This document shows, one piece after another, positions 3,001-33,302 of a stretch of 48,945 bases of DNA. This DNA is from Psammoneis japonica. Lineage: Eukaryota. The notes beneath the pieces are model-generated. The model was given only the letters and a program-made list of their open reading frames with translations. It had not been told where the DNA came from and searched no databases. The position numbers and the translations under genes were made by a program. Position 1 is the first letter of the stretch; each line of letters opens with the position of its first letter. Location of the stretch: contig QPGO01000009.1 in the NCBI GenBank assembly GCA_008632985.1, forward strand, positions 806,001 to 854,945. The letters run 5' to 3'.

Positions 3001-4134
3001 ATTGACCCTTGTCTTTATTTCAAAAAGGGCATGTTGTGTGTGGCACATGTTGATGATGCCGTGTTCGCCGGCGCATCGGCCCAAGCCTTGGAAGCAGAGA
3101 TTGCCAAGTTGGGCATTTCCAACGATGAGCAACGCCATGTCTTTGATCTACGTGATGAAGGCGAAGTCGGCAACTTTCCAGGTGTCAAGATTCAAAAGCT
3201 CGAAGACGGCCGATTCCTCCTGACCCAACCCGGCCTAATTGAGAAAGTTCTCCGAACCGCACAGATGACTGAGTGCAACGGCGCACCCACTCCTGCCTTG
3301 CCTGCTCCTGCTGGCAGCGATGCCGACGGGCCACCGTTCGAAGAGCCTCATGACTGCCGTTCCGTGGTCGGCATGCTGATGTGTCTAGCGTCCAACAGCC
3401 GCCCGGACATTGCTTGCATGACCCATCAAGTCGCACGGTTCTCCTGCGCACCCAAGGCCTCCCACGCTGCGGCCATCAAGCGCATTCTTCGTCACCTGAA
3501 GGATGNNNNNNNNNNNNNNNNNNNNNNNNNNNNNNNNNNNNNNNNNNNNNNNNNNNNNNNNNNNNNNNNNNNNNNNNNNNNNNNNNNNNNNNNNNNNNNN
3601 NNNNNNNNNNNNNNNNNNNNNNNNNNNNNNNNNNNNNNNNNNNNNNNNNNNNNNNNNNNNNNNNNNNNNNNNNNNNNNNNNNNNNNNNNNNNNNNNNNNN
3701 NNNNNNNNNNNNNNNNNNNNNNNNNNNNNNNNNNNNNNNNNNNNNNNNNNNNNNNNNNNNNNNNNNNNNNNNNNNNNNNNNNNNNNNNNNNNNNNNNNNN
3801 NNNNNNNNNNNNNNNNNNNNNNNNNNNNNNNNNNNNNNNNNNNNNNNNNNNNNNNNNNNNNNNNNNNNNNNNNNNNNNNNNNNNNNNNNNNNACCTCCCA
3901 GCATCCGTTGTGTACGAAGACAATGCTGCCTGCCTCCAACTCGCCCGTGTGCCAAAATTGTCCCCACGAACCAAGCACATCGGCATTCCCCACCATTGGT
4001 TTCGTACTAAAGTTGAGGCTTTGGAGATCAAAATTGAGCCTGTGAGCTCAGCTGCACAGCTTGCTGACCAGTTTGCTAAAGGATTGACTGTTGATCTGTT
4101 CCGCACTGGCCGCAAAGCCCTCATGGGCTGGTGA
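1..4134 (+). mobile_element. Ty1/copia (CoDi-like) LTR retrotransposon pol: protease, GAG-pre-integrase, integrase, RT, RNase H; 5'-truncated by the window, gapped, and degenerate through TpA mutation
   Basis: Copia domain order: CDTGAS protease; WHFRFGH...CEVC zinc motif; integrase VSVD...DSG...QNGIAER; RT KARHCVRG, HGLRQSP, HVDD, RPDIA; RNase H EDNAAC...RTKHI...QLADQFAKGL. Confidence 0.95.
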
Positions 4135-4160
4135 CTGACAGTTCTCCTTCTCTTTTCGGT

Positions 4161-4432
4161 TGAGAGGGAGAGTCACGAGTCAACAACCGAGTCTGATTCA
4201 CGGATGACGCTCCCGGTCATGGATCTCTTCTTCCGGAAGAAATGTCCGTTGAGTCTTCTAGCGACAGCAATCGGAGTGACACACACGACCGTCAGGTCAT
4301 GATGTCATCTCCAATCCCTCGTGAGATCTTCTCACAATTCGCATCTTTAGCGTATCTTATTGTCCCAAAAAAACCTACTTCTTATCATCCTCTGTTGTAT
4401 TGTACAACCTCAAGAGAGTCCTGAACTCTCCA
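4161..4432 (+). repeat. Polypurine tract (TGAGAGGGAG, 4161-4170) followed by the probable 3' LTR; right end approximate
   Basis: Purine run 27 nt after the pol stop. The 5' LTR is outside the window, so the end cannot be confirmed. Confidence 0.55.
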
Positions 4433-4594
4433 TCCTACACAGTGCATTGTTGCATCCCAAGTCTACGATGTGTTGGTGTGCGAGGCTGTATGATTTTGAT
4501 TGTATGTACGGTCACCGCGCAAGCAAGACACGAAGAGGTGCGGTCTGTCCATAGTACCAGTACTGGTACCGGTAGCTACTAGAGCGAGAGAGGT

Positions 4595-4802
4595 TGGGGG
4601 AAGTCTCCAGCCAGCTGCTGGCTGAAGAATCTTGTGTAGAATTTGTACTGAATGAGTCTGTCAATCTGTGCGTTAGGGGGTTTTGATGAACGCTGGACAG
4701 ACTCGTCGTATTCTGTGTACGTAAAAATTCTACTGGCAAAACCCACAAACGCACTGACGAGCAGACTTTTTTCAGCCAGCAGCTGGCTGGAGTCTTCCCC
4801 CA
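4595..4802. mobile_element. MITE (208 bp) with ~35-bp TIRs and a 4-bp flanking direct repeat AGGT
   Basis: Left TGGGGGAAGTCTCCAGCCAGCTGCTGGCTGAAGAA; reverse complement of right end TGGGGGAAGACTCCAGCCAGCTGCTGGCTGAAAAA; AGGT at 4591-4594 and 4803-4806. Confidence 0.85.
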
Positions 4803-4837
4803 AGGTGGACGTGACACTTTCTCTGCCATCAACAACC

Positions 4838-6457
4838 ATGATGGCTTCTCCATCATCCAAACGACAGCCGCCGTTCCTTGCATGCATACTATTACTACTC
4901 GCAAGTAGTATCGTGATTTCCACCAATGCCTTTGTTATAAATTCATTGACAAATCATGCCAATAAGTCGTCATCAAGACTCTACGCAACAACAAAACAAC
5001 AACAAGAACGCTCCAAGATTCGACGAGCCTCCAATTTGTTGACGGATTGGGCACGTAATGATGCGGGTATTCAAATGGGTGGTGGTGTAGAAGTGGGAAC
5101 GAGTGAATTGGGCGGTTTGGGTTTGATTGCGAGCCAAGATTTAACTGCAGGTCAAGTCGTCGTGACGGTTCCGTCTTCGCTCGCACTGTCGGTACAAGTA
5201 CCCGGACAATCGAATAATCTACCACAAGAGTATTTTGATAGCAAGTCTCTCCAAGAACTTTCGTGGTTTGTTCAATTTTCAGCCTATCTACATGTTTTGG
5301 ATCTAGACAAACAAAAGGATAATGTCGACATGAGCGTATGGTTAGATTCGTTGCCACGGTCCTTTGATACGCCGCTGCACTGGTCCAAGGAGGCACGAGA
5401 TGAGTTGCAGTATTCCTTTTTACAAAATGCCGTGTCACGACAAGAATCGGAATGGAAGAAACATTACGAAACTGTGAAAAAGTCGTGTTTGGTCGATTTT
5501 TCTTTTGAGAAATTTGTGTGGGGCGCCGAATGTGCTCGATCTCGTGCCTTTTCGGGAACGACGGGTGCCGCCTTTGATGCCAAACCCTACGTGCTATCGT
5601 TGCTCTTGGTGGTGGTCTATGTGGGTTTGAATTTGGGCACACTGGAACAAGCCGCCAATGGTGCCGCCTTTGTCGTGTGTGCGTCCATTCTCAAGGATTT
5701 TGTTGTTCCAAAACTACTGAAAAAACAAACCTACGTCATTTGTCCCTACATTGACATGGCCAATCACAATTCGCAACAAACGTCCGCAAAGGTCGAATTT
5801 GAATTTTTTGGTAATGCCTACAGTTTGGTGACTTCAGAAGATATCCCGAGAAATTCCGAATTGTTCATTTCGTACGGACCCCGATCCAATGATCAATTGT
5901 TGCAATATTATGGATTTTGTGAAGCAAACAATCCTCATGATGTCTACGTCATGCCGCCTCTACGAGAATGGGATATCGATGCACTCGAACAAGCCACCGG
6001 ACGCCAATTTGCTCCGGGACGATTGGAAAAATTAAATCGTGCCGGATTGTTGGGGAGTAGTAGTAATGAGAATAATAATGGAGACGATGACATGGAGAAT
6101 GCAGCTGCCAATCGGTCACGTGGGGGTGTCGTGGTGACAAGGGCGGGTGGTGTCGATCCTGCCGTGATGCAAGCCTTGCGGGCTTTGGTGTCGTCCCAAG
6201 AGGAATGGACCAATGCCGGTGAGGCCATTGGTAATTTTGCCCAAGAAGTGGGACCTGACAATGAGCGTGCCACCCAAATTGCGGCCCGGACCGCACTGGA
6301 ATTGGAACTCGAATCCAAACCCACCACGATTCAACAAGACGAGGAGTTGTTGAAGCGAATTCCCAAAAAGGGAGCTGATGCGGAGGATGTTTTGGCGATT
6401 CAATTTCGATTGGAAAAGAAGAAACTATTGGAGGAAACCATCAAGGCGTTGCAGTAA
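4838..6457 (+). CDS. Plastid-targeted SET-domain lysine methyltransferase (Rubisco LSMT/SETD3-like)
   Basis: GLGLIA, IDMANH, ELFISYG, LLQYYGF motifs and a C-terminal substrate-binding region (TTIQQDEELL...RLEKKKLL). Signal peptide with TNA/FVIN cleavage site; start placed at ATG 4838. Confidence 0.9.
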   Translation: MMASPSSKRQPPFLACILLLLASSIVISTNAFVINSLTNHANKSSSRLYATTKQQQERSKIRRASNLLTDWARNDAGIQMGGGVEVGTSELGGLGLIASQDLTAGQVVVTVPSSLALSVQVPGQSNNLPQEYFDSKSLQELSWFVQFSAYLHVLDLDKQKDNVDMSVWLDSLPRSFDTPLHWSKEARDELQYSFLQNAVSRQESEWKKHYETVKKSCLVDFSFEKFVWGAECARSRAFSGTTGAAFDAKPYVLSLLLVVVYVGLNLGTLEQAANGAAFVVCASILKDFVVPKLLKKQTYVICPYIDMANHNSQQTSAKVEFEFFGNAYSLVTSEDIPRNSELFISYGPRSNDQLLQYYGFCEANNPHDVYVMPPLREWDIDALEQATGRQFAPGRLEKLNRAGLLGSSSNENNNGDDDMENAAANRSRGGVVVTRAGGVDPAVMQALRALVSSQEEWTNAGEAIGNFAQEVGPDNERATQIAARTALELELESKPTTIQQDEELLKRIPKKGADAEDVLAIQFRLEKKKLLEETIKALQ

Positions 6458-8678: not shown

Positions 8679-9097
8679 GTGATATCGACAGGCTGCCCTT
8701 GCTTGGAAGGCCTCGCTCTACCTACTTCTGTTTCACAGCAACGACCGACGACCGGAGTTGTGGCGATGATGTGTGCGATGTTGCCGTTTTCATGGTGCGA
8801 TCCGGGTGATCCGGGAAGCCGCAGACCGATCGCGCGCCCGCGCAACAAAAATGAGGATGACGTCATCGTTCACAACTCGTGATTGAAACAATTCCATTCA
8901 CGTTTCTTCCCGTGTCAAAATCTTCCGCGAAAAAGATCTCCATCTTCACAACCTCCTGACTTGGAACAGGAAGAAACAAAGGATCGCCGTCAACTTGTCA
9001 ATACGGTACAAAAGAGAGAGCTAAAGTTCGAATATCCCCACTCAAGTGCTCTCCGTTCCGACTACTACAACTGTAGAGGAAAACAGATTCGTCCAAG

Positions 9098-10686
9098 ATG
9101 ACATCATCTGAAAAACAAGGAGCTCCGTTACCCGCCTCGCACACGGTACGTTGGATACTGGTTGCGACTGGAATGCTCCAAATCACCTTGGGCGCTGGTT
9201 TGGTGGTTGGATGGGCTGGAATTGCGGGTTCCATCTTGACAGCAACACGAGTCAGTGGTGGAGCGGGTCTCACCTTGGATGAAACCACAACCTTGTACGG
9301 CTTTGCGGCAGCTTCCAATTACTTGTCACCCATTTTCTTGGGAGCCATTTTAGATCACCGTGGGCCTCGAACAGCGTCCTTTGTGTCCAATGCCCTCGTG
9401 GCGGTCGGGTGTTTGTTGTTTGGTCAAGCAACCACTTTTCGGCAATTTGCGGTAGCAATTTCCATGGTGGCGTTTGGTGGACCGGGTGTGCAGACGTCAG
9501 TTATTCATACAGCCAATCTCTTTCCGGCCAATCGATATTTTGTCATGGGACTTGTCGGTGAATGTATTACACTCAGTTTTGCCGTTTTCCCATTGATGGA
9601 TGTGATTTGGCAAACCTATGACGTGGATTTTGAAACGCTCTTTTACGGACAGGCAATCTTGGTGGCACTTTCGGCCATTACCTCGTTGTGCATCTGGCCC
9701 GACACACCGTATGAACACGTTCATGTTGAAGAAGAAAATAAGACGGCCGACGCTGGAGAAACCGAAAGCGAGAAATTGCTATCCTCAGTCAAGGAAAAAA
9801 CAGATCCACCACTTCAGGAACAGTCGCTCATCAAACAACTCACCAGCGGAGCTTACATTCGGCTCAGTATATTCTTTCTTGTCACCTCCTTTTATGCCAA
9901 TCTTTACATTGCCACGGTGACGACAGAGGTAAGTGTATGTGTTGAGAACCAACTTGCTTTATCATTACTTGTCATCTCATACCTACTATTCACGTTTCGT
10001 AATTCGAACAGCTTGGAGACACACAACAGTTTACTTTTGAAACTCAGCATCAATTGGCAAGCACGCTGAGCTTTATTGATGCCGCCGCCATTCTCTGCGC
10101 TCCACTATCCGGATACTTGTTGGATTCGGTCGGTTTTGGCGCGGCAGCCGTGGTTGCAATTTCCTTGGGTATGGGACAAATGATTCTCCTCTTGGTAGCC
10201 AACATGGACATGTTGGATTCTTCCTACGACAGTCCCGATTTTCCCTTCATCATGGCAATCATGATTGCCAGCTTTATCTGTTATGCAGCATTTCGAGCCT
10301 TTTTGTTTCCTTACTTTTTTGCCAATCTATCCAGAAAACTGGGATTTCGCTTTTTTGGCATCTTGTCGGGATTATCCTTTTGTGCGTCTGGACTTTGTCA
10401 ATTGGCCATTGCGCCTCTCTCCAAGTTGGTAGACGGAGAATGCCACCACATCATGGACAATACGTTTGAAGAGTACCACAATGAAGACTGCGATCAAGGA
10501 AATTGGAAGCTGTTGCACGTCATTCAGTTGGTGAATTTGGCATTGCTCTTTCTTATCCCCTACTTTGATACACGCTCAAGTTCCATTGCTGCGGCCGAGG
10601 AAAAGACTCTTCAAAACACCGACTCTGAATATGGATCCACGAGCAGTACGGACGGAGACGGTGTGATTGGAGTTCAAGTGTACTAG
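9098..10686 (+). CDS. MFS transporter, SLC43/LAT3-FMP42-like, 2 exons
   Basis: About 12 hydrophobic segments and MFS motif A (GAILDHRGPR; GYLLDSVG). Intron 9929-10011 (GTAAGT..CAG) joins two ORFs in frame. Confidence 0.85.
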
Positions 10687-10963
10687 TATATAGTACGCAA
10701 CTTCAGTTAATTTTGTACATACTACACACGCGACATGAATTCATACTAAGGAGACAACGAGCTCTGTTGGTCTGTTGGATTTGAGCGAGGGGAAGACAAC
10801 GATCGCGGTTGACGGGATGCAGGGTTTTTCACAGACCAGAGATATCATAAATCAATGTTTTACCATGACGACTTTGAGCGTTGCAGTGATGTGAAGATTT
10901 GCGCCACGAATCAAACCCTTGCGTGGTTTTCAATCCGAACAAAACTCAATCTTTTCCAAATTT

Positions 10964-11127
10964 CTAACACGTGACTTGGCATAACGTGTTAAGGAGTAGC
11001 TGTGCTTTCCACCGATTCACTAGCCCTATGCCCCCCGTCTATTGAGCAGTTGTTGTCCATGTAGCAAGCTCTTGTAAACTGATAGAAGTCGAGAAATTGG
11101 CGATTCTGAACCAGCGGTAGAGTTTGA
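10964..11127 (-). pseudogene. Truncated 3' fragment of the gene at 16699-17736
   Basis: Aligns to 16699-16864 with a 5-nt deletion and a 3-nt insertion; TpA sites are retained. Confidence 0.9.
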
Positions 11128-11250
11128 AATCGACCGAAACGACCGGTGCTCATCATATACTCTAGAGTAGGTCTATCGTTGGATCCTTGTAGGATTAAAT
11201 CATGAACGACCGCAAGCTACCTACACGGCACCTCCTATCTCGGCATCAAG

Positions 11251-12507
11251 TTAACTGTCTGAAGAATCAGTTTCCGTCGACTTTTTTATTTCGGCAGAAA
11301 TTTGCTCTTGCAAAAGCTGTAGATTCTGCAATGCAGCCTTCAACTTAAGTTTCTCCAAGGACTTCTGGATATGTTGCTTTTGATCCGCTTTTCCAAACGG
11401 ATACCACGATAATTTGTCTAACTCCATTTCCAATTTGTAAATTTGTTCCTCTTGATTGCCAAGTAAATTTTCATACTCTGCAGAAGATGAATCGTCCAAG
11501 TCATGGAATTGGGACTCGAGTGCGATTCTTGCCTGCACAACCGCAAAATGGCGAGCTTTTGGATCCGCTCTTGGTAGGACAAGGCATTCCACTGAAGCCA
11601 CTTCTTTTGTACCGTCATGGCCACCAATGGCATACACCTTGTTGCCCAGCACTACAGTGGCAAGACTAGATCTTGCCATAGACAAATCGGGCAGCGAAAT
11701 ACATACATCTCGATTCGTATCAAATACTTCCACCGAAGACAACTTATCGCCGTCATTGTCTTCGCCACCGACAATTATGATAGAGTCACCCCACTTTTGA
11801 ACTCGCATGTGCCATTTGGGTGTTGACAGTTTTGCTTGACATAATTTCCATCTCTTCAGGTCAGTGTCTAGACACTCGATGGTATTCAAATTTTCTTCAC
11901 CATACCCACTGTCCCCACCAACAACATATAATTTAGTCCCAACAGCTTCCGCTGCACCTCCCCATCGTGCGGTAGTCATGGGTGGACCTTGCAGAATTTC
12001 GTCCGTCGCTGTGTCTAAAATGTCTACCGACGTTTTGCCCGATCCACCAAAGATGTACACATATCGTTCTCCCACTGCAGCCGCTGTGCATCCGTATCGT
12101 GTGCAAGTCAATTTTGCTTTGAGTATTTGCCATTTTGGTTCATTGAGAGATAAATCCAAGCATTCGATGGAATCAAGAGTACCTCCATCCAGTCCCCCAA
12201 ATACATAAACTTTGTGTTGTGTAAAAACTGCCGCATGATGACTACGGGCACGATTGAGATTAGGCCATGACGACAATTGCTCCCATTCTTTAGACTCAAG
12301 ATTGCAAACTAATACTCTTGATAAACGTTTGTTTCCGTCATTGCCACCAATAATCATGTATTTTTGATTGCTTATTGCGACCGCCGCGTGGTCGCTCCGT
12401 GGTTCTGGCAAAGGCGGAACATGCGACGACCATGCGACTTGTTCCACGTTTCCGATGCCGACCAAGAGCAAATCTCTTTCTAATCCGTTATCACCCGATA
12501 ACGACAT
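11251..12507 (-). CDS. Kelch-repeat beta-propeller protein with C-terminal coiled coil
   Basis: Six repeats of R..HAA....VYVFGG....S.E.YD....W; Leu/Gln/Lys heptad tail; single 418-aa ORF. Confidence 0.9.
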   Translation of the reverse strand: MSLSGDNGLERDLLLVGIGNVEQVAWSSHVPPLPEPRSDHAAVAISNQKYMIIGGNDGNKRLSRVLVCNLESKEWEQLSSWPNLNRARSHHAAVFTQHKVYVFGGLDGGTLDSIECLDLSLNEPKWQILKAKLTCTRYGCTAAAVGERYVYIFGGSGKTSVDILDTATDEILQGPPMTTARWGGAAEAVGTKLYVVGGDSGYGEENLNTIECLDTDLKRWKLCQAKLSTPKWHMRVQKWGDSIIIVGGEDNDGDKLSSVEVFDTNRDVCISLPDLSMARSSLATVVLGNKVYAIGGHDGTKEVASVECLVLPRADPKARHFAVVQARIALESQFHDLDDSSSAEYENLLGNQEEQIYKLEMELDKLSWYPFGKADQKQHIQKSLEKLKLKAALQNLQLLQEQISAEIKKSTETDSSDS

Positions 12508-12639
12508 GTTGTGTATTTTGACTTTCTGAGGAGCAACGTGATACCGTACTCCTAAAGGTTAGCGAGGCTAGAGCGGGGAGTGACACGAAAAAATGAATGA
12601 AGCTAAAATAACAGCTGGGAAGCAGTGTGAAGATGCCGA

Positions 12640-15600
12640 CCGTTGTTCAGCCGTTACGGCGGCATCTCTCGACACTGTCATGCCAGAACGAATGATCATC
12701 TGTTTGCGACGATGGCACAGCTAGAATCAGTGAAAAAGTTGAAACAACCAGTGCCAAATGACAAAAGCCATTTAGAGTTTTTGGCCTCTGGCAAACAACA
12801 GAGCAACCAAGATTTGCCAACTCGTGTTTCTTGCTCCCACCCAAATCAGCAGTGATCAAAATGGTGTCTCTTGGCCACACACGGCAAAACCACTGTGGCG
12901 CTGGCCAACAATTGCCGAAATGCAACACAAACCTCATGAAAAAATTTCTGCTCCAATGTTCTTTCCCAAGAATTTCACGTGGTGGCCAACACAGCAGTTT
13001 TGGGCAGATGATTCAGCGCCTCTTCACACATCTTTGGAGAGGAGCACTTCTCTTTTGGGGGGCCCACACATCTGATTTGTTGAGAGGAGCTGGAAATTGC
13101 CATCACCAGCAAATGAACAAAAGCTTTCATGTCCTCAGCATGGTGCTGGCCACTGTTTTATTGCTTGTGCACTGCCCCACAAAAGCTTCTGCACTCACAA
13201 GCAACTTCAAACCACAAGTGGCAGCAACTGGAGCAGCTTCGGGCATTGTCAATGCGAGCATGAATGCAACACCTTGTTGCTCTGGAGTGTTGGCACAAGA
13301 AAAGGTGTTTGTTTTGGGCATGGCTCAAGATGCTTTTTGTGCTAGGGTGATGAATGTCATCACACAAAATGAAGCTCAAAAGCTTGCAGATCAAACATCA
13401 GCAGGGGTCACCATCACACTCTGGAAGGAGCAGTGGCAGCTTTGTCATGGCAGAAAAAGTTGCAGTGGAGAGTTGTCAGAGGTGCAGCCAGGTGGAATTC
13501 AGGTGGCTGTTTTGCAGCTGCAGCATGAGACAGGGGGGGGGGGCAAGCAGTGGCAGCACTGTTGGACAGGGGCACTTTTCTCATCAAAAAGAGTGGTTTT
13601 TGTTGGGATTGGTGCCTGTTTGCATTGGCAGCTGGCTGAGGAACATTTCTTTTTCTTTCACACAGAACAGTGTCATGTGGGTGGCAGCAGTGAAGCAAAA
13701 AAAGAGTGCAGCAACAGGGGCGGTGGGCTTTTCTTTTTGCACTCTGAGATGAAATGAGCACTCTGGTGCACGCAAAAGTTCAACACACATGTGATGTAAA
13801 AAGAGTGAAGGCAGAAAACAATTGCAAGCTCCCAAAACAATGAAAAAAGTCCCATGCAAAGCTTTTTTCTCACATGGAAGTTGACAAATTCTCCAAAGTG
13901 GCTGGCTCAAAAACTCCTCTTTCAACAACCAAAAACTCAAAAAAAAAAACACAAAACGCCATGATGCCAAAAACATTTTCCTGGCGTTGCTGCACAGAGA
14001 GATTGGTTTTGGAAAAAACTCAAATTGAAGGGAGCTTGCAAACAGGCAAAATGTGACATTTGATGGATTGCACATTTTTGTGCCACCTGGAGCTGATCAG
14101 AAGAAAACAATGCTGCCCATGCTGGCAGAGCCAACAGCAAGAAATTGCCAACCTTGGTCAAGGAAGAAACAGGTCCGCTCTTCACAGAAACAGTTTTTCA
14201 TCAACAACTGGCAAACAAAGCTTGTGCTCCATGCTCAGTGTGTGCTCTTCCTTGTTGCCTCCTTTTGTGCCCACCTTTGCATTGCCACAGTGACCACAAG
14301 GCAAGTCTGTGTGACAAGTCAACTTGTGTTGGCATTGCTTTTCAACGCATGCCTGCCATTGATGTTTTGCAGCTCAAGCAGCTTGGAAAAGCATGCTTTT
14401 AAAATTTGTCATCAATTGGCAAGTGTGCTGAGCTTTGTTGCAGCCCACTGCTGCAGCTGCACTGCTGCCTGGGTGCTTGTTGGTGCAGCAGCAGCCATGG
14501 CTGCAAATTTGGGCATGGGTCCAATGATTCTCCTCTTGGTGGCAGACATGGACACACTGGATTTTTCATGCAACACAGCCCCAGTTGTGTCTTCCTTTCA
14601 TCATGGCAACCACGGTTGCCAGCTTCATCTGTTGTTCAGAATTTTGAGCCTTTTTGTTTCCCTGCTTTTTTGCCAACCCACCCAGAAAACTGGATTTGGG
14701 TTTTTGTGGCATCTTGTTGGGTCCGTCCTCTTTTGTGCATTTGGGGCATTGTTCCTCTCTCAAACTTGGTTCATGGAGAATGACACCATGTTGTGGACAG
14801 CACATTTGAGGTGCACATCAAGGAAGACTGCGGTCAAGGAAATTGCAAGCCATTGCATGCCATTCCAAATGGCCAATTTGGTGCTGCTTTTCCATGTCCC
14901 CTGCTTTCATGCCACTCAAGCTCTGACATTGCAGCCAAGAAAGAAAAGGCTCTCTTTGACACATCAATGTGGAACATGGACCTGCTGGCAGCATGGGCGG
15001 AGACAGCGTGACTGGAGCTCAAGTGTGCAAGCTGCCAGAGAGTGTGCAGCAGGAGGCAGTGTCTCAATTTTGTGCACGCCGCACCAGCAGCATTGACTCT
15101 CACTTCTGGAAAGACAACAACAAGCTCTGATTGATTGAGCAGGAGGGAACAATGACCATGGTGGATGGGGTGCAGAATTGTTGCTGGCCCAAGGTGTGAT
15201 GAAGCAAGGCAGCCATGAGCGCTGCAGTGGCATGAAGATTTGCACCATGAGTCAAAAACTTTTGTTGTTTTGTGAACATTGAGTGGTGATTGATCTTTTT
15301 TTAACACATGACTTGGCACAACATGTTGAGAAGCAGCTGCACCTCCCACCAATTCACACATCCAGCCCCGTGTCTCCTGCCCGCTGAGGAAATTTTCAGC
15401 ATTGTGCCACAGCCAGTTTTAACATTTTCCCACTGATGGGTGTGACACCTGGCAAACCAATGATGTGACTTTTAAGATGCTCTCTTGTGAGAGCAGGCAA
15501 TCTTGGCAGCTTGCTCAAGCTGAAAAGGAGATCAGAGTGCAGCCGACACTGCTGGCGATGGAGCCAACAGTGACAAATTGTTGTCTCCACCTCAGCAAAG

Positions 15601-16450
15601 AAAGAAAGAGGTTTGTGCCACTTTGGGGACAGTTTCTTGTCAAACAACTTGCCAGATGAGCTTGTGCTTGGCTCCACACATTTTTTCTTTGTCTTTTGTT
15701 GCCTCCTTGTGTGCCAATCTTTGTGCTGCCATGGTGAGATGACAGAGGCAAGAAGTGTGTGGGTTGAGAACTGCGTGCTTTGTTGTTGCCTCTCATTTCA
15801 TGTGCCTCCTGCTGCTCACATGCACAATTCAAACAGAGCATCTTGGAGGAGACACAACAAACATTTTTCTTTTGAAACTCAGTGCCAGTTGGCAAGTGCG
15901 CTGAGCTTCATTGACATTTTTGCCATTCTCTGCACCCCACTGTCTAGAGATGCGCTTGATGGGCTCACTTGGCTTTGGCAAAGAATCAGCTTTGGTTGAA
16001 ATTTCCTTGTTGGGCATGGGCCATGATTCTTCTCCTTGTGGCCAACATGGACTTGTTGGAATCTTCACATGATGCCAGCCTCAATTTGTCCTTCATCATG
16101 GCAATCATGATTGCCAGCTTTGTGCCTTTTGTCTCCCTGGTTCTTTGCCAATCTATCCAGAAAACTGGGATTTTGGTTGTTTGGCATCTGTCTTGTCAGG
16201 ATTGTCCTTTTGTGTGGCCATTGTGTCTCTGTGCAAGTTGGCAGATGGAGAACGTCACCATGCAATGGACAACACGTTAGAAGTGCCACAATGAAGACTG
16301 TAATCAAGGAAAGTGGAAGCGTCATTCAATTTGGCTGATTTGGCCTTGCTCTTCCTCATCCCCTGCTTTGATGCACGCTTAAGTTCTTATGTTGCCTCCG
16401 AGAAAATGACGCTTCGACACACCGAAACGGCATGTGGATCCGCTGGCAGT
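12640..16450. other. TpA- and CpG-depleted hypermutated block 1
   Basis: TA and CG are almost absent and CA/TG abundant; long Tyr-free, Cys/His-rich spurious ORFs in many frames. Confidence 0.85.
14099..15388 (+). pseudogene. Hypermutated duplicate B: MFS 3' half, downstream spacer, and 3' tip (15301-15388) of the 16699-17736 gene
   Basis: SFYANLYIATVTT becomes SFCAHLCIATVTT; donor GGTAAG becomes GGCAAG; LGMGPMILLLVADMD versus LGMGQMILLLVANMD; TTAACACATGACTTGGCACAACATGTTG versus TTAACACGTGACTTGGCATAACGTGTTG. Confidence 0.9.
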
Positions 16451-16476
16451 GCGGACGGAGACGGCGTGATTGGAGT
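15400..16476 (+). pseudogene. Hypermutated duplicate C of the MFS transporter (matches from about 9563 to the end of the gene)
   Basis: FIMAIMIASF, FFANLSRKLGF and ALLFLIPCFDAR match the intact gene (IPYFDTR); the intron is retained with a mutated donor. Confidence 0.9.
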
Positions 16477-16698
16477 AGTTAATTTTGTACAGTACATACA
16501 ACATGAACTCACACTATATTATGATGACAACGAGCTCTGTTTCGATTGAGCGATGGGAAAATAACGATCGCGGTGAACTATCACTGGCCCGAGACATACT
16601 AAAACAAGGTTACCGCGAACACTTTTTAGCATTGCAGTGATGTGTTTGCACCACGAATGCTTTCGTTGATTTAGATGTCGAACATTAATCAATCCGTT

Positions 16699-17736
16699 TT
16701 AACACGTGACTTGGCATAACGTGTTGAGTAGTAGCTGTGCTTTCCACCGATTCACATACCTAGCCCTATGTCCCCCGTCCGTTGAGCAGTTGTCCATGTA
16801 GCAAGCTCTTGTTAACTGATAAAAGTCGAGAAATGGGCGATTCTTGACCAGCGGTAGAGTTTGATGGTAAGCTTGTCCGTTCCTGCCAACATCAGGCCGG
16901 TATTCTTCGGGTACTTTTTGCTTTTGATAACACGGCATAGAGTTGAATACAACGTTTGGCGCGCTGTCAAGGAACGCTTTGATTTCGTGAGAAAATCTCG
17001 TAATGTTGCTTTTAAGCGACCCTAATATGTGAATGCCAGCACCCACTATTGCCGCGAAGCTGGTCTTGTTTTGTAAAATGGAATTGATGCAGTTCGAGCA
17101 CTCGAGATGAAATAACGATCCCCCCTGTCCGTAGCATTCAGCGCTGCAAACATAGCCCACTGCGGGATATGACTTGTTTTGCTGCCAATGATCGTGAAGG
17201 GCCTGCATGGATAGTTTCAGAACCTCTCGTCTATGGGAAGCATTCATTATTTCTTCATTGCTAGGATTCTCCAACAGAATGTCAATCAGTCCGATATAAA
17301 GTTGAATGTTGTAGCTGTCTCCAGATACCGCTACTCGAATATCTTTGTTTGATGAGAGGCAGTCGATGGCTTCTTGGGAGGAAAAAAGATGAAGCCTCGA
17401 CCTAAATACCTTGTCGGTCGGCAAGCAAATGCCCTCGTTTAACGCTGCTAGTTGTATCGTGTCGAGATGTTTGTAACTGTTGCAGTAAAAATCGTCCATT
17501 GCTCTATATTGCTTGCTTCTGATTGTTGTGGACCAACGACAAGCAGCATCTACTCCATACGGAAGGAATCTGTGCGGAAACGGAACGAATGTTGACGTGA
17601 CATTCGTGACATTCTTGTTCTGTATTTTTGATTGATTCACCGCGTTCGTTTGACTTGATTGAAAACGAAGAATATATCCTCCCAAGCAAACAGCAGTCAC
17701 ACTATAGATCAAGGCTTGTTTTGCTACCTTTCGCAT
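16699..17736 (-). CDS. Type II membrane SGNH/PC-esterase (TBL/NXPE-like) acyltransferase or esterase
   Basis: N-terminal TM anchor (MRKVAKQALIYSVTAVCLGGYIL), GDS motif (VSGDSY), C-terminal DxxH (TDGGH). Confidence 0.7.
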   Translation of the reverse strand: MRKVAKQALIYSVTAVCLGGYILRFQSSQTNAVNQSKIQNKNVTNVTSTFVPFPHRFLPYGVDAACRWSTTIRSKQYRAMDDFYCNSYKHLDTIQLAALNEGICLPTDKVFRSRLHLFSSQEAIDCLSSNKDIRVAVSGDSYNIQLYIGLIDILLENPSNEEIMNASHRREVLKLSMQALHDHWQQNKSYPAVGYVCSAECYGQGGSLFHLECSNCINSILQNKTSFAAIVGAGIHILGSLKSNITRFSHEIKAFLDSAPNVVFNSMPCYQKQKVPEEYRPDVGRNGQAYHQTLPLVKNRPFLDFYQLTRACYMDNCSTDGGHRARYVNRWKAQLLLNTLCQVTC

Positions 17737-18059
17737 TTCACTACCGTCGGTATTATTTGTTTGCAGGTTGCAACAACAGCAATGACATAACAACGCGATC
17801 GCAAGACTGAGAGCTTCCTCTCTGCTTTTGGCGAAATGAAATCGCGAAAAAACCAATAATTTCAAATTTTCCACCGCGCTCGCGCTCACATTGCCCTGAC
17901 GACGACTCGGTGTCGCGCGAACGTGCCGCTCTCGCGAAAGCGCGCGCGCGGCGACAAGGCACCGCACGCACGACATCACACACATCACCGGTCGAGGTTC
18001 GAGGTTCGAGGTGCAATCTACTCTCTAGCGCAGCAACCTTGGCGATCTTTTTGCAGGAG

Positions 18060-19900
18060 AGAACGACAAGGATGGTGATTGTTTGTTCCAATGAAGAATC
18101 CTTTCATCAAACAACAACACTGCTGTGTGTGGCTCTAAACTGGCTGCACAATCTTCAAGTCTCAACATCGCCTCAAAGTGGGGGTTCAACAGCAAAGTCA
18201 ATCTGCTTGATGAATTCACTCAAATGCCAAAGCAACAGAGTGGAGGAAATCTGCCTTTGCTGACACCATCTATCCTCACATGCACAAATGATTGTCAACA
18301 TGCAGCAATGCCTGTGTTGGAACACTGACACAGCACAACAAGAAGCAACAAATTGTTCCCCCCTCCCCCGCCAAAGTGTGCGGACCTTCAAACCCCCATC
18401 AGATCATTTGGCTTTCCCAAAATTGATTTTGGGCACATGGACAATGCTTCTGTTCTTCTTTGTCTTCTTCACTGTTGACAAACATGACGTTGAGCCAGAC
18501 CTGCAATCGCCCGGGAGCATTGCGGGCCAGACCTCGATTGACCAGGAACTCTGCTGTGGTCGAGTGGCACACGTTTGGCTTTGCTGACCCCAAACTCACT
18601 GTGTGGCTTGCAACCACCCCAATGCTGCTGACTGCTGTTGCCATGTCAGCTGGGTGCAGAAGCTAAAAAGTGAGCGGAAAACCCGCATCTCAGCCTGAGT
18701 TGTGAGCGCAACTTTGCCACATTGTCCACAATCGTCGGCACATCTTGCACTGCAACATTGTCTGTCTGTCCTGTGAAAACTGCCTCTGACCCTGATGTTC
18801 CAACAGTCACCTTTCCAACAGAGGTTGTCTGCTGCACTTGCTGAGATGAGAAGAGGAAAGGCAACTCTGGGCTGCAACTGTTGCAACCTCAGTTTTGGAG
18901 CATGCTTTTTCTGCAATTTGGTGCAGTGATCCAAAACTTGCAAGCACTGTGATCTGACCTGTCTGTGCAATTTGTTCTGTTGTCTGGGAGCTTCCTGCAG
19001 CACTTGTGGCACACCAGCCAAGGGGCTGAGGGTCACAGAGAGACAGGCTTGTCTTCTTTCACAAGTTGCTCCAGCACCAAAATGGATCTTCTTGCAAAAG
19101 CTTGTTGGGAGATGCTCAATTTGAGCTGCAGTCAATGACATCACATGGCCAGAAAGCTCAGCAGCAAAACTCTCACATCCTCCTGGCACCAGCAATCCAC
19201 CCCCAATCATTTGTGCAGACCGCTGGCCAAAAAGCACTGGCAAAAAAGTGGAGTCTCTGCTGCAATGCTTGCCCCAGTCAATTGGGAAGCTCCAGATCAG
19301 GCAGTGAGCCAATGCCGCACCTTTGGAAGAGTCCAGCAGAGCCCAAGATTTGCCCAGCTGGCAAAGACCTTTGCTGTTGCAAGAAACTCAAAAGCCCCAG
19401 TTTGTCTGCATTGCAGAGAATCCAAAGATGGCACTGATCTTGTTTTGTGCTGCACAGCCCTCTTGGATCAAAAGAGGCCTGGACTTTGAAATGATGGCTT
19501 GCCAGCCAACTGGCTCAGCATCCCTTTCTGTGTAGGGGGGTTGTGCAGTCACTTCAATCATGCCATGATGAACAGGGCACACCTGCACCCACTTCCAATT
19601 GTTGTCCACAGGCACAAGCAACCCATCCAACCACACCCATCTTGCCAGATGGTTCACCAGGCCAATGGAGTCAGTTCAAGCAGAGGAGACTGATTTCAAA
19701 AGACATTGGCCAGAGGCAGTTGCAGTGGAAATGCAAGCTGTGGCCCTTCTGGATGCTGATTGAAATGCTTCGTCAAGACAATGGTGAAGGGTTACTTCAG
19801 TTGTGCAGTGTGTCAATCGCCCCACAACTCTGCGTGCGACAATGTGCATGACATGTGTTGCTGACGTTCTGCTCCCATCCATGTGGTCCTGGATTGAAAG
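18060..19900. other. TpA/CpG-depleted hypermutated block 2; original identity unrecognisable
   Basis: Same dinucleotide signature; abrupt return of TA at about 19920. Confidence 0.8.
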
Positions 19901-20279
19901 GAAAAAACAGGATGCGTTTCTAGGCAGCAGCTCGTCGCCGATAAAATTTAAAAGTGTCTGAAATACGGTACAATCATGGGCTCAAGGTACAACGTAGACA
20001 TTGCCAGTTTGGTCTTTTGCCTGTTGTTTGAGTTGTGTATCTTTGGAAGAAGTGCCGGCAGTAGAGGTTAGCAAATTGAAAAAGAGGACTGGTTAACCCA
20101 CAGCCAAGAGGAAGCGAACTGCTCAATAAACGCATGGTCTAAGAACATCAAAAGATGCTTGCCGCCAAATAATCAACACGCACTACATGAAGAATAAAAC
20201 TGATAAGGAAGCATGCAGAAACCAATGTGATACAAAAGCGGTACACCCCTCGAGCAAACAAGTTGTCAAAGTTGCGCTT

Positions 20280-22685: not shown

Positions 22686-23179
22686 CCTCGTGCTGAACAG
22701 CTGAACAGCCGTAAATGTAGGTCGTTTCGAAGAGCGAAAAGCAGGGAATTTGTACTGTAATGGATTCCTTTTATCGCCCATGTCAATATCCGGGAATGGT
22801 GTGAACTCCAAACTGTGAACTGAGCAACGTAGACTTCAGAATAAGGCGACAAGGAGGGTCCAAAACAAACCATAGAGTCGAGACGAGGAGGCCGCCTAAA
22901 TTACCCTGATGAGAAAAAAGGAAAGAAAGGATTGTCGTGATGTGATGTTGTTTTGAAAATGATTACAAATAATGTCATATAGCCCAGAAATGTCTCAGAT
23001 CAGAGCAAGACAATTGACATTTTATAATGAATCGACAAAAGACATTTTCCAGAAATAGGGAATCCTAAGTAAACAGTCAGTGAATCGCTGAACCCAGCCA
23101 CATGCGGTCTTCGAGATGTTGAGGGCAATTGATTTCTGCTGAACCAAAAGTGGTGAATTGAACCGGGCCGGAGCCTCCT

Positions 23180-26100
23180 CCTCACACATCTTTCTGCTTT
23201 GTCATGCACTGTGCCGGCATTTCCTGCGCTGCACAGTGATCACAGCACAGCATTTGAAATCACAACGTCACGCATGGCCACCCAATGCTAACAGCAAAGA
23301 TCCACAGAAGACGGACGCCAAAAGAACAACACGCACAAAAAAACATCACAAACCAGCCACTCGTGCATCATGGTGGGCATCACGGCATCACGGCACTTCT
23401 CTGTTGCGCCACGTGGCAAGGCAGAGGTGCTCTTCCTCCTCCAACCCCCACCTCTTGCTCTGGAAAGCAGCTTGCCCCTTTTCAACTGGACATGTGCTGC
23501 AAGAGCAGGAAAACCCTGGCTCTCTCAGCTCTTGCGCTGCTTTGTTGGAAAAGGGGGCAACCCAACCCTGCTTGGCAAAGCTTGGAGCTTTTGCGGGATT
23601 TTTTGCTGCACAAACCCGTGGCATGGTGCTCCCCATGCAATGCAGCTGCCTGCACTAAACAATGGTTGCAGGCTGCTTTTGCATCACCAAACACGTTGAG
23701 AAAGGCACGCCTTTGTGCAACAAGCATTGAGGCCGCAGGCAGCGCATCGCACTGTTGAGATGCACGGCGCACACTGCCCGGTGCACAATGCCCAGTGCAC
23801 AATGCCCGGCTTGCTCCAAGCCAGCTCTGGAGGTGAGGCCTCACACTGCTGCACTGTGGCATCTTAGTGATTTTTGGCAATGTGCCACGTGCACATTTCC
23901 ACATGCAATCTTGCACAAAGTTGTTTCGCGCTCCCCGTTTTGCAAAGCTGCCAAAAGCCAAAGGCTTTTTTCACAATTTTGTGGGGTTTAAAACACTGGC
24001 TGGGTGCAGTCTTTGGTGCCTTTGAAGAGTGCAGCAAGGCAAAGTAGAAATGCAAAGTGGAAATGATGCACTTCAAGCATCAAGGAGTTTTTTTCTGTTC
24101 ACAAAATTGCCTGTTTTCTGAGCTTGTGCCTGGAGTTCTGTGACCGAACGGGGCTGGAGAGCATGTTGTCACACACTGTGATGCCACACAACATTTTTAC
24201 AGTTGCTCTTCTGCCAGCCACACCTCAGGGTGCCCCAGTGATGGGCAGAAAGAGCAGCACACAAAGGGTGGTGTGTTGGCAGATGGAACAATGACCCCAA
24301 CAACCTTGTTGTGCAGTGCTCTGTGTCATCTTTTTCTCTGCTCATGCAAGGACTCATGGAACAAGGGCTGCTTCATTGCATTGAGGAGTGCACAGAGTGC
24401 ATGAAAGTGTGTGTTGATGGAGGGCTGGGTGGTTGTTTTTTGGCACACACACATGACCCATGTTCTCATTGCAGTGGTGGTGTCGCCACATTGCCTGCTG
24501 TGAAGGACACGGCAACAACATTTCAGAAAAACAGCTGCCATGCTGTGAAAGGTGCTTGCCACATTTTTCCCAGTGATTTGCACAAAGTTTGATCTTCATC
24601 TCAGAGCTCCAATGATCCCTTGCATTTCCAGGCATTTGCAAAGCTCTTCTGTCCTGTGACCTGCTGTTTCTTTGAAGTGTGGAGCACTCTTTGTCAACAG
24701 CAGCAAACTTTATGACCAACTTGTTTGTCAGGGTTGGTGAGTTTCAGCCCAATGCTCTCAGCATCCAAGCAAAAAGAAAAGCCAAAAAGAAGAAGAAAAA
24801 AGGCATGTGGTGCAAAGTTGTGACACACCTCATTGCAGCACATCATGCTCCATTGCATGACATTTTTTGTGTTGAGCATTTTTGATGCTTGCTCAACAAC
24901 ATGTGTGTTGCACTCTGCACTGCTTGGCAACCAGCACATCACATTGTGCAGCACTCCACTGTGTCTTCTTGCAGCACAACATTTTGCAACATTTTGTGGT
25001 GTGACATCCTTGGTGACTGCCAAATTGCACTTGCACCATGACACCAAAACCTGACCATCTCAGGTGCAATCAGACACAAAGCACAATTTGGTGGCCTTTG
25101 ACTCACCTGGGTCACAACCCTTGATTGCTTGTGCAACATTTTTGTGGCCCTTTCAAGGCACCATGTCAAATGTTGCACAGACCCTCCCAGGGTTTCCAAA
25201 AAATTCTTCATGCTGTGCATGGTTTTGAAGTCAGGGTCTCTTTTGGCACCCACCTGGAAAGCAACACAGCCATCCAATGCCCTTTGCCCTGATGCTTTGG
25301 AGTGGCCATCAAAGACATTTGTGACATTCTTGCCACCACCACTGCAATCCTCCTCCTTTGCTTTGTTGTTGTTCTGGTGCATGAGATGCAACGCAATGGC
25401 ACATCACAACAGCGCCACAACAGAGCAACAGGACAGCTGTTTTTTCACCTTCTGTTTCTCACTGCTGTCCTGTTGCACTGGAACACTGCCCTCATCAAAT
25501 TGCTGTCCTCTGATTTCTTGCCATTTGTCATTGAAAACATTGTCCTTGTTGACACTGCTCTCCTGGTCATTGCTGTGGTTGCAATCACTCTGCTTCTTGA
25601 CTGTGCTTGTCTTTTGTCACTTCATCACCCATGTTTGGCACAAACAACAGAGAACATGAAAGAATGTAGCATTGCATGCTGCAGCGCAGCAGCATGTTCT
25701 TGCCTTCTCAATGCCCTTGTTGCTGCTGTCAGTTTTGCACCTCTTTGTGTCCCTTGTTGCTCTCACTTTGACAGGTTGCTCACCCTTTGCTTGCACTTCT
25801 TGCTGGCTTTGTTTTTCACTTCTGGCATGTGATGGGTGCAAACAGCAGCACATTGTGTCACACTTTAGCACTCAACATTGTGCTGTGCAAACACATGCAC
25901 AACATCTGATGTGATGTCACACAATTTCACACCTCTTCAGCAATGCTCTCAACACTCCTCTCATCACTGCTGCTGTTGCTGTCACACAAGAGACTCTCCA
26001 CTTGTTTTTCCTGCTGCTCAATGTGCTTGCATTGCTTGCCACAACTCTGGTGGCAGCTGGCGAGAGTGGAGGCTTTTTCAATGGCTTTGCTTTCCCCACA

Positions 26101-32326: not shown

Positions 32327-32810
32327 AGTGTGTGTCTGTCAGATCTAATGTTGCATGTAATCTAAATTGGATTTTGCAAATGATCGGCCAATACTGGTAG
32401 GAGGTGAACGGGTTTGTTGCATGATGTAGTGACTTGAGATCCAACGCTATTATATGTATAATCCAAAGAAATGTTTCTGCGGTTGGTTGATCATTGTTAA
32501 TGACGAGATTTTTTTTTTTTTTTTCGTTTGCTTGTGGTTTGCTATAGAGGTTCTCAAAATCTCTACACCAAGAAATCTCACGAGAACCGCAACCTTGCAA
32601 ATGCAAAACATGTACTCTAGGCTTACAGTACTTATATCTATCGACCAGGAATATCAAATGATCGAGACCTGGTGGCTTTTCTAACATTCTAACAGCGCAC
32701 CACGGCATGTATACTTTACAAAGAAACGTAGTAAATGTGTAATTCGACCTGAAACCTCAACGATACGTTGTTTCCAATGGAAATACGAAACACGCGTATG
32801 CTCTTCCACA

Positions 32811-33302
32811 CTACACATTGAGACTCTGACGTTCCTCAACAGTGCCATCGTCACCTAGTTTCTCTTCCAACAAAATACCCACAAATGCGAGAACGATCCA
32901 AAGTGGCCAAATCCACGCTGCACTGTCCCAAACGACTCCACACGAAGGAAGGTCTGCCGAGGCAAAGAAGCTTTTCCACATCCAAAACCACACCAAACAA
33001 AACCCCGCCACAATTCCAACATTCCAGGAATGTAATCCACTCTTGTCTGCGTAAAAGAAAAAGCCAACGACAAAGAGATTCAATCCACGCATCAAGCAAG
33101 CAATCGTGGCGAGATCCCTGCTGGACGCATTGTCAAAGAGACAGTTCATTCCCTGAGATTCCGGGACAATGATGGACCAAATGGATGCAACGATATTCAC
33201 CCAAATGAACGTGTAGAATAGGACTAGACTGATGCGTCCCCAAATGGTTTTGGTCGACTCCCAAGCGTGGCGAAGGTAGACGGCAGGGTTGAAGCTCCAC
33301 AT
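32811..33302 (-). CDS. Small 4-TM membrane protein, paralog 1 (163 aa)
   Basis: Four hydrophobic segments; highly similar to 34935-35423 with many synonymous differences. Confidence 0.8.
   Translation of the reverse strand: MWSFNPAVYLRHAWESTKTIWGRISLVLFYTFIWVNIVASIWSIIVPESQGMNCLFDNASSRDLATIACLMRGLNLFVVGFFFYADKSGLHSWNVGIVAGFCLVWFWMWKSFFASADLPSCGVVWDSAAWIWPLWIVLAFVGILLEEKLGDDGTVEERQSLNV

Follow-up and report, generated by a model that had tools for sequence, protein, structure and literature searches.

A stretch of 48,945 nt from the diatom Psammoneis japonica (contig QPGO01000009.1 of assembly GCA_008632985.1, positions 806,001 to 854,945; called the window below and numbered from its first letter) contains three direct copies of a unit that consists of the 3′ part of an MFS transporter gene, a spacer, and the 3′ end of an SGNH-fold gene. 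These copies are designated as A, B, and C. Copy A is ancestral in sequence, and in copy B and most of copy C the majority of its CG and TA dinucleotides have been changed to CA or TG. The explanation preferred here, with a probability of roughly 0.6, is that the leftovers of duplicated genes lie in a non-genic domain and have been altered there by two mutational processes directed by chromatin or transcription, one acting on TpA and the other on CpG.

A repeat search of the window returned 15 direct repeat families in register. With BLASTN, positions 9809-11127 of copy A and 15618-16864 of copy C are 70.7% identical over 1377 columns (E = 0.0), and positions 9730-10681 of copy A and 14099-15026 of copy B are 70.5% identical over 976 columns (E = 9e-117). 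BLAST was also run on sequences recoded as purines and pyrimidines, a comparison that is blind to transitions and for which five shuffled nulls gave top scores of 33-37. The recoded search connected A (9730-11046) with B (14099-15388) at a score of 508, and it extended the plain match between A and C to 9563-11127 and 15403-16864. The threefold array described in the first-pass annotation, which was made from the letters of the window, is borne out by these three comparisons, and every substitution quoted there between 15299-15388 and 16697-16786 is visible in a direct repeat family.

Copy A (9563-11127, + strand) includes the MFS 3′ part, the spacer, and a fragment of the SGNH tail. It is not hypermutated, with 73 CG and 67 TA per 1565 nt. 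Copy B (14099-15388, + strand) is truncated at both ends relative to A and fully hypermutated, with 12 CG and 2 TA per 1290 nt. Copy C (15400-16864, + strand) is hypermutated in its MFS part, except for the end of this part, which is normal, as are the spacer and the SGNH tail that lead into the intact SGNH-fold gene. The truncated SGNH 3′-end pseudo-copy within copy A (10962-11127, - strand) is non-functional and unmutated. It is 93% identical to 16789-16864 over 76 nt, and the recoded match of the tail covers 10962-11127 and 16697-16864. A homologue of the MFS intron is present in all three copies, and therefore they are DNA-level duplicates and not retrocopies. The same homologue confirms the earlier statement that intron-containing host DNA was a target. 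The duplications are old, with a transversion divergence of 6.8-11.4% (95/1387 for A-C, 131/1300 for A-B, and 140/1226 for B-C), and from these distances it would seem that B was the first to branch off or has the higher rate of evolution.

The first-pass annotation had proposed that one functional copy of each gene was spared by the mutator. This assumption is unnecessary. When the adjoining 3′ ends of two convergent genes are duplicated in tandem, the result is invariably one intact copy per gene, and the duplication topology alone accounts for the pattern. In the arrangement MFS(5′)-unit-unit-SGNH(rest), the MFS gene obtains its 3′ part from the left unit, whose SGNH tail is dead, and the SGNH gene obtains its 3′ end from the right unit, at whose start a dead MFS 3′ part is left.

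Three sharply bounded hypermutated domains were delimited by sliding dinucleotide statistics, with block edges located at 100-nt resolution. In domain 1 (~12700-16330), CG and TA are almost absent, CA+TG reach ~22-23 per 100 nt, and the GC content is unchanged. Hypermutation had been assigned earlier to copy B and part of copy C. This holds for B and most of C, but both belong to one continuous domain that starts 1.4 kb to the left of B. The part without a repeat partner in the window (12801-14098) contains 12 CG and 3 TA in 1298 nt. Domain 2 (~18080-19880) includes a high-copy stretch, and domain 3 (~23000-28900) has a TA-only margin (23001-24000) beside the 5′ end of a PhoX-like gene. The high-copy stretch was recognized with contigs of sequencing run X1, whose word depth is 455-934 at 18350-19097, compared with ~64 elsewhere, with many joints and loose ends. 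The high-copy element in domain 2 keeps some CG (6 in 18500-18600) and no TA.

In sliding windows across the blocks, the observed/expected ratio (o/e) is ~0.03-0.2 for CpG, ~0.01-0.06 for TpA, and 1.7-2.1 for CA+TG, and the GC content is 0.46-0.53. When 10.3 kb of blocks are pooled, these ratios are 0.14 for CG, 0.04 for TA, and 1.84 for CA/TG, and the GC content is 0.49 versus 0.47 outside. Positions 12801-16300 contain 31 CG and 10 TA, whereas 336 would be expected at the frequency of CG+TA in the gene regions (binomial p = 7e-98); shuffling the mononucleotides of this segment gave means of 196 CG and 243 TA. Among stop triplets in the 10.3 kb, 12 TAA and 9 TAG are seen versus 221 TGA. Long spurious open reading frames (ORFs) appear in all frames of the blocks because TAA and TAG are nearly gone, and six-frame ORF length is meaningless inside TA/CG-depleted blocks. 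Pfam searches of 18 long block ORFs gave no credible match up to an e-value of 0.1. For the four long ORFs of 12801-14098, the sole row up to this e-value was DUF1611 (E = 0.091; 12.6 bits versus a cut-off of 25), and for the 11 long ORFs of domain 3 it was DUF1129 (E = 0.079; 13 bits versus a cut-off of 29.1). With TAA and TAG nearly absent, the block ORFs are probably spurious.

The direction of the changes was determined with four orthologous proteins from outgroups, which provide 185 conserved columns where at least three of the four agree. Copy A has the outgroup consensus at 141 of the 185 columns. Among the 63 codons that differ between A and B, the consensus matches A at 49 and B at none; among the 56 that differ between A and C, it matches A at 37 and C at none. 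Copy A is ancestral, and CA and TG are derived. The earlier view of B and C as mutated derivatives stands under this polarization, in which the outgroups never side with B or C.

From A to B, CG became CA or TG at 46 of 60 sites and TA became CA or TG at 41 of 55 sites, versus a reverse change to CG or TA at 1 of 97 CA and 3 of 94 TG (4/191 together). From A to C, 30 of 64 CG and 37 of 55 TA were converted, and the reverse changes amount to 6/101 and 5/102. Considering B and the in-block part of C together, 70 of 89 TA of copy A are now CA or TG and 3 are kept, and 73 of 97 CG are now TG or CA. The outcomes are nearly strand-symmetric (TA>TG 43 and TA>CA 27; CG>TG 40 and CG>CA 33). Transitions per site inside domain 1 are 0.40-0.47 at CG, 0.46-0.47 at TA, and 0.12-0.18 at other sites; in the unmutated part of the A/C alignment, sites outside CG and TA show 0.07 transitions per site. 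Transversions per site are 0.03-0.13 throughout. The values of 0.40-0.47 at CG and TA correspond to about one event per dinucleotide, after which the product is immune. The spectrum is CG to TG/CA plus TA to TG/CA, close to saturation, and not the CpA to TpA change of repeat-induced point mutation (RIP).

The change at TA depends on the sequence context. A>G occurs at 36 of 56 TAC and 30 of 55 TAT, versus 10 of 29 TAG and 7 of 38 TAA. The side of TA that is changed depends on the flanks. TG and CA products number 27 and 7 in Y_TA_Y, versus 3 and 7 in R_TA_R (Fisher p = 0.006); they are balanced in R_TA_Y (12 and 11), and Y_TA_R was converted in only 3 of 6 cases. The 3′-neighbour and flank dependence thus defines a motif, 5′-TAY-3′, that is readable on either strand. 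Two weaker secondary signals were seen, A>G outside TpA (V-A-Y 110/448 versus V-A-R 53/568, p = 6e-11) and an excess of TC>TT (53/246 versus 55/526, p = 8e-5). They are reflected in the block composition, with o/e values of 0.74 for AT, 1.34 for GC, and 0.84 for GA/TC.

The base that is attacked may be read in two ways. On one reading, thymine at TpA would be enzymatically modified in silent DNA, for example by oxidation to 5-hydroxymethyluracil or 5-formyluracil through a TET/JBP-type enzyme, and mispairing with G during replication would lead to T>C. The motif 5′-TAY-3′ for A is 5′-RTA-3′ for T and fits equally well. In dinoflagellates, hydroxymethyluracil is reported to replace T with a preference for TpA sites, and 5-formyluracil is a base known for mispairing with G. 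This thymine route is nevertheless considered quite improbable. Modified thymine in diatoms was not found in the retrieved material, and in the available portions of its description the sole experimental precedent, hypermutation in Bigelowiella natans, favours an adenine deaminase, which is itself a hypothesis there (bioRxiv 10.64898/2026.01.13.699255).

The borders of domain 1 were compared with those of the repeats and the genes. The left edge lies ~190 nt upstream of the start codon of a Kelch-repeat gene (12507). From there, the domain passes through 1.3-1.4 kb without a partner in the window, then through B, and then into C. Its right border (16320-16480) is staggered in the site-by-site list: CG is retained from ~16320, and TA is converted up to ~16450 and kept from 16480, so that the two borders are offset by ~150 nt. 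The description of C in the first-pass annotation was correct for the mutated MFS part and for the run into the intact SGNH gene, but the mutation ends inside the MFS pseudo-exon and not at the border of MFS and spacer. The homology of C with A and B extends to 16786-16864, ~370-500 nt past the end of the mutation.

These positions bear on a homology-triggered defence, RIP-like but with another chemistry, in which A, B, and C would be recognized as duplicates, the mutation would leak into the flanks, and selection would clean A and the SGNH tail. The two most mutated sequences that can be identified are tandem duplicates, block 2 holds the high-copy stretch, the copia element described below is a member of a repeat family by nature, and RIP in Neurospora spreads into flanks. 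This explanation is still regarded as unlikely. The spacer and the dead SGNH tail of copy A (10687-11127) are duplicated and non-coding but not mutated. In this segment, A and C differ by 0.15 transitions per site at CG and 0.19 at TA, and for the same segment in B the values are 0.43 and 0.50. The mutation in C stops before the homology does, and 1.3 kb of domain 1 have no partner in the window. Recoded BLAST for hidden partners of 12700-14098, of blocks 2 and 3, and of a TA-depleted block in a metagenome contig (L003, below) found none above the null maximum of 33-37. A tandem paralogue pair (32802-33304 and 34925-35425), with 83% identity over 505 columns, has normal CG and TA contents and serves as an unmutated duplicate control; it corresponds to the - strand ORFs 32811-33323 and 34935-35627, both with open frames and neither with a Pfam family. 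The larger hypermutable region of B. natans, an integrated giant virus (a nucleocytoplasmic large DNA virus), is described as single-copy in the parts of the preprint at hand (bioRxiv 10.64898/2026.01.13.699255).

The border inside C, the unpartnered 1.3 kb, the clean tail of A, and the clean paralogue pair favour the targeting of non-transcribed or silent domains over the recognition of homology. Contigs of a second run, X2, lie on unmutated stretches (10010-10824, 10872-11109, 11092-11961, 16639-16753, and 16724-17822). X2 is labelled 'DNA?' but was read as cDNA-like, as one contig is without the MFS intron and the contigs lie on genes only. No X2 contig falls on the blocks and none of a third run, X3, falls on the window, and neither absence is counted as evidence. 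The proposal that the array can serve as an internal control for the mutator proved a very good one.

Loss of TA without loss of CG was observed at several places. The first is the ORF of a Ty1/copia-type retrotransposon at the left end of the window (1-4134, + strand; RVT_2, E = 2.5e-34), whose reverse transcriptase matches Fragilaria crotonensis. It is depleted of TA (o/e 0.13-0.22) with normal CpG (o/e 0.90-0.97) and a GC content raised to 56-57%, and, two N gaps aside, its frame is open for 1377 codons. Tyr is rare, with 4 residues in 509 codons and 1 in 325 codons. In comparison with 60 homologues, 655 aligned pairs have Tyr on the homologue side, and the residue of the window is Cys in 45% and His in 39% of these (84% together), whereas three control homologues keep Tyr in 70-78% of such pairs. 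In this element, Cys or His occupies all eight conserved Tyr columns, among them that of the YxDD tyrosine of the polymerase. Among 117 database homologues, in a word-based search that may miss edited copies, not one reaches a share of 30% Cys or His in the conserved Tyr columns. The copia element is TA-edited and dead, and its frame is still open because the TA to CA/TG chemistry cannot make TAA or TAG.

The second place is the block margins. TA-only margins at 12601-13000, 17801-18200, and 23001-24000 are situated on the promoter side of the - strand Kelch, SGNH-like, and PhoX-like genes, with mean CG o/e of 0.65, 1.26, and 0.53, respectively. The margin on the SGNH promoter side (17801-18200) is TA-poor and CpG-rich, and its positions 17900-18000 have 21 CG and 0 TA. 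The CpG-rich, TA-free stretch is seen at 17880-18010, followed by a 7-nt tandem repeat (17992-18012). Run X1 has alternative joints near the 5′ side of the SGNH gene, one connecting 17785 to 17903 and another connecting 17926 to 17979 with 20 other letters, which suggests allelic length variation at 17880-18010.

The third place is in another organism. A metagenome scan with the MFS orthologue alignment revealed four loci (L001-L004). The MFS protein encoded by L003 is 53% identical, and directly upstream of this orthologue is a sharp 3-kb block (2001-5000). It contains 2 TA in 3000 nt versus 34 in 1200 nt of flank, at a CA/TG o/e of 1.56-1.75. CG is nearly unchanged (99 in 3000 nt versus 46 in 1200 nt of flank). 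Eight ORFs of this block are without Pfam match up to an e-value of 0.01, and no similarity to the blocks of the window was found. No comparable block was seen in L001, L002, or L004. With tblastn, neither the SGNH-like gene nor the Kelch gene was found at the four loci, where adjacency of MFS and SGNH in relatives was looked for.

TA loss and CG loss are separable, and TA loss reaches slightly further. The presence of TA loss without CpG loss suggests that it acts first or faster. The simplest reading would be a TpA-specific editor together with the ordinary decay of methylated CpG in the older core, where methylation is presumed. A single enzyme system would also be conceivable, either a dual deaminase of A and C in DNA or a modifier of the self-complementary YpR steps CG and TA. 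Consistent with this, the two losses are nearly co-bordered in three domains, both are strand-symmetric with CA/TG as products, and a 5′ T is somewhat favoured at A>G sites as well as at non-CpG C>T sites; ADAT2-type enzymes are also reported to deaminate A and C in DNA, as cited in the available text of bioRxiv 10.64898/2026.01.13.699255. Such a system is judged very improbable in view of the TA loss alone in the copia ORF, in the three promoter-side margins, and in L003, of the staggered borders, and of the CpG component, which is not reported for B. natans in the portions of that text consulted.

An artefact, that is, mis-assembly of paralogues or base-calling errors at modified bases, could be suspected from the three N gaps in the window, two of them within the copia element. 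Contigs of run X1 cover 9000-20200 at a word depth of ~48-75. They reproduce the blocks at single-copy depth, and one contig (13939-16119) bridges the junction of B and C, while another (10246-12852) bridges the end of A, the Kelch gene, and the start of the block. This support may not be fully independent, as the assembly may itself derive from the X1 sample. Indels and 7-11% transversions also separate the copies, and the signature is present in the unrelated metagenome contig. The N runs measure 999, 387, and 439 nt, and gaps with such definite sizes would point to paired-end scaffolding and not to a nanopore consensus. An artefact is rejected as the main explanation on the contig bridges, the indels and transversions, and L003, and the chance assigned to it is negligible. 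Differences between the window and X1 in 12700-19850 are mainly inside the blocks and mostly transitions (37 sites listed and 30 further). Among the 37 listed sites, several of which are near contig ends, CG or TA is present in the contig but absent from the window at 13, and the reverse is seen at 4. These differences may be allelic states of ongoing editing, and are taken as a hint only.

According to the preferred explanation, old DNA-level tandem duplications over the adjoining 3′ ends of the convergent MFS (+) and SGNH-fold (-) genes would have generated the three units. All of B and the MFS part of C would be promoterless leftovers. Together with the 1.4 kb to the left of B, they would make up a single non-genic domain that reaches from the Kelch promoter to the SGNH 3′ end. 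There, a first process would convert TpA to TpG or CpA with a strand-symmetric preference for 5′-TAY-3′, most likely through adenine deamination in double-stranded DNA. A second process would convert CpG to TpG or CpA, most likely through deamination of 5-methylcytosine in methylated silent DNA. Both would be directed at the chromatin or transcription state and not at sequence homology, and it is proposed that the borders follow gene and promoter edges because of this targeting. An adenine deaminase and a DNA methyltransferase are inferred as the enzymes, together with targeting of silent chromatin and a function in defence.

Several points weigh against this explanation. The targeting of silent chromatin is deduced from border positions only. 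B and C are adjacent direct repeats and could be each other's partner in a homology-triggered process, and for the MFS gene and the SGNH tail, selection by itself would be enough to keep mutations out. The duplication is old (transversions 6.8-11.4%), so that the spectrum sums a long history, and alignment error in gapped regions inflates the 'other' site classes. The excess of TC>TT indicates that the C>T component is not purely CpG, and the ambiguity between 5′-TAY-3′ and 5′-RTA-3′ makes the sequence fit adenine and thymine chemistry alike.

The targets are of different origins: the copia element is a transposon, while B and C are fragments of host genes. A broader proposal, which is tentative and held at clearly less than even odds, is a chromatin-directed defence of diatoms through DNA editing. 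It would change the A of 5′-TAY-3′ to G on both strands of any non-transcribed DNA, such as transposons, foreign relics, and promoterless host duplicates. If this is true, the defence never creates TAA or TAG, and dead elements keep open frames. Among the mutational genome defences of eukaryotes, it would then be a third kind next to RIP and APOBEC, and it would provide a natural adenine editor of double-stranded DNA.

The genes around the array were characterized as follows. The MFS transporter gene (9098-10686, + strand) starts with ATG at 9098 and has two exons, 9098-9928 and 10012-10686 (the stop codon being part of the second), which are separated by a GT..AG intron (9929-10011). It matches Pfam MFS_1 with an e-value of 1.5e-13 (50.9 bits versus a gathering cut-off of 33.4). 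Its orthologues are 50-61% identical, and the best named match of the exon is from Amphora coffeaeformis (61%). A contig of run X2 omits 9927-10009, with GT..AG ends, at the MFS intron, and therefore the MFS gene of copy A is transcribed and spliced. The MFS orthologue of L003 is colinear across the position of the window intron (6471/6472), and thus has no intron there, while that of L001 has a 155-nt gap (1842-1998) at this position. The MFS intron is not conserved among relatives.

The Kelch-repeat gene (11251-12507, - strand) has an open frame of 418 codons, matches Pfam Kelch_1 (E = 1.7e-42), and lies between copy A and domain 1. The intact SGNH-fold gene (16699-17736, - strand) encodes a protein with GDS and DxxH motifs and an N-terminal helix. 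This protein has 98 homologues, and all the named ones are from diatoms (Thalassiosira, Cyclotella, and Skeletonema). In the block I and V motifs of 43 sequences, D141 and S142 are invariant, and G140, D321, G322, G323, and H324 are at least 90% conserved. Its AlphaFold2 model has a mean predicted local distance difference test (pLDDT) score of 88.9. Nearly all listed PDB matches of this model with Foldseek are SGNH/GDSL-type enzymes, including 1z8h, PatB, and TesA, with modest scores (best 1z8h, E = 3.3e-4; target-normalized template modelling scores of 0.5-0.65 among the top matches). No Pfam family was found for it even at e-values up to 10. Its neighbours in the Atlas provide leads only: one cluster has PC-Esterase in 50% of its members, and another has NXPE4_C in 12%. 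The assignment as SGNH, as given in the first-pass annotation, is supported at the level of the predicted fold and by the conserved motifs, though without a Pfam match. The other genes of the window are ordinary ones, namely ThiD/ThiE, SET/Rubisco-LSMT-like, PhoX-like, and SAM synthetase genes, and the window is regarded as nuclear DNA.

The pattern can be compared with several known systems. RIP, known from Neurospora and other fungi, where it is premeiotic and involves a RID-type cytosine methyltransferase, is a homology-dependent process that changes CpA to TpA, leaves AT-rich and TpA-rich tracts, and creates stop codons. The window resembles it in the dense transitions within defined non-genic or repeated tracts, in the destruction of duplicated genes, and in the presumed role in defence. 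Unlike in RIP, TpA is destroyed here, the GC content is 0.47-0.50, TAA and TAG nearly vanish, ORFs remain open, and the borders ignore the repeat. Classical RIP is rejected from the TA and CA/TG o/e values (0.04 and 1.84) and from the change of CA to TA or CG at only 1 of 97 sites from A to B. The homology rule of RIP, by which both partners are mutated over the shared segment, fails as well, with A clean, the border inside C, and 1.3 kb unpartnered in the window. The earlier statement that the pattern is not classical RIP is in agreement with the TpA loss, the unchanged GC content, and the spectrum.

Decay of CpG driven by methylation affects silenced transposons in vertebrates and plants, and CpG-methylated transposons are known in diatoms. 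The similarity is in CG>TG/CA within silent blocks and in the CpG kept at adjoining promoters. CpG decay, however, covers only half of the signature. The change of TA to TG/CA has no counterpart there, and it occurs alone in the copia element, the margins, and L003.

APOBEC/AID and ADAR editing of retroelements and viruses, which is found in animals, is similar in that deaminase-type transitions are clustered on selfish elements, and the minor TC>TT excess resembles APOBEC contexts. The substrates of these enzymes are single-stranded cDNA or RNA, and the tracts that they produce in new insertions are strand-biased. Here, in contrast, both strands are edited symmetrically in resident chromosomal DNA, including non-mobile pseudogenes and intergenic DNA. 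Retro-editing by ADAR or APOBEC is rejected as the main explanation on this strand symmetry and on the non-mobile host targets.

TpA-specific chromosomal hypermutation has been described once before, in a 2026 preprint on a chlorarachniophyte (bioRxiv 10.64898/2026.01.13.699255). In the full-text literature searched, in which subscription journals are largely uncovered, no TA/CG-depleted blocks or hypermutated transposons of diatoms were found. According to the parts of the preprint that were available, 230 of 231 mutations in two hypermutable viral regions of B. natans mutation-accumulation lines are A>G or T>C, and all A>G/T>C mutations are stated to fall on TpA (Mettrop et al., bioRxiv 10.64898/2026.01.13.699255, 2026). 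The same parts describe 124 TpA-depleted, CA+TG-enriched clusters in the genome, cite a preference of ADAR for a 5′ U, and propose an ADAT2-like adenine deaminase (bioRxiv 10.64898/2026.01.13.699255). As far as these parts go, the chemistry (A>G/T>C at TpA, giving TpG/CpA) and the cluster structure are common to both organisms. Clusters of the B. natans type, of at least 3 kb, are found in the window, with domains of ~3.6, 1.8, and 5.9 kb in addition to the copia element.

The two cases differ, on the same portions of the preprint, in several respects. B. natans is a rhizarian, and the targets there are integrated giant-virus and virophage DNA, whereas P. japonica is a stramenopile and the targets include promoterless duplicates of host genes. 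Here, the depletion is saturated (TA o/e 0.04) and a 3′-pyrimidine preference (TAY) is resolved. The older blocks here have also lost CpG nearly completely, a feature that those portions do not report for B. natans. Finally, the process in B. natans is known from de novo mutations, while here it is read from the sequence.

The locus adds a second major lineage, the diatoms, and the contig of a second organism with the TA signature. It represents a natural experiment with a known ancestral sequence, which provides the polarized spectrum, the TAY motif, and the strand symmetry. It also provides evidence for gene and promoter borders over homology, for host pseudogenes as targets, and for separate losses of TA and CpG. 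Annotation is affected as well: the long frames of TA-edited transposons persist and will be predicted as genes, and such dead elements look intact. If the proposed diatom defence is real, the presence of the signature also in a rhizarian alga would mean that the system is ancient within the SAR (stramenopile, alveolate, and rhizarian) supergroup or was repeatedly acquired. If it is true that an enzyme edits adenine in double-stranded DNA so specifically, it would be of interest for the biology of genome defence and for base-editing technology.

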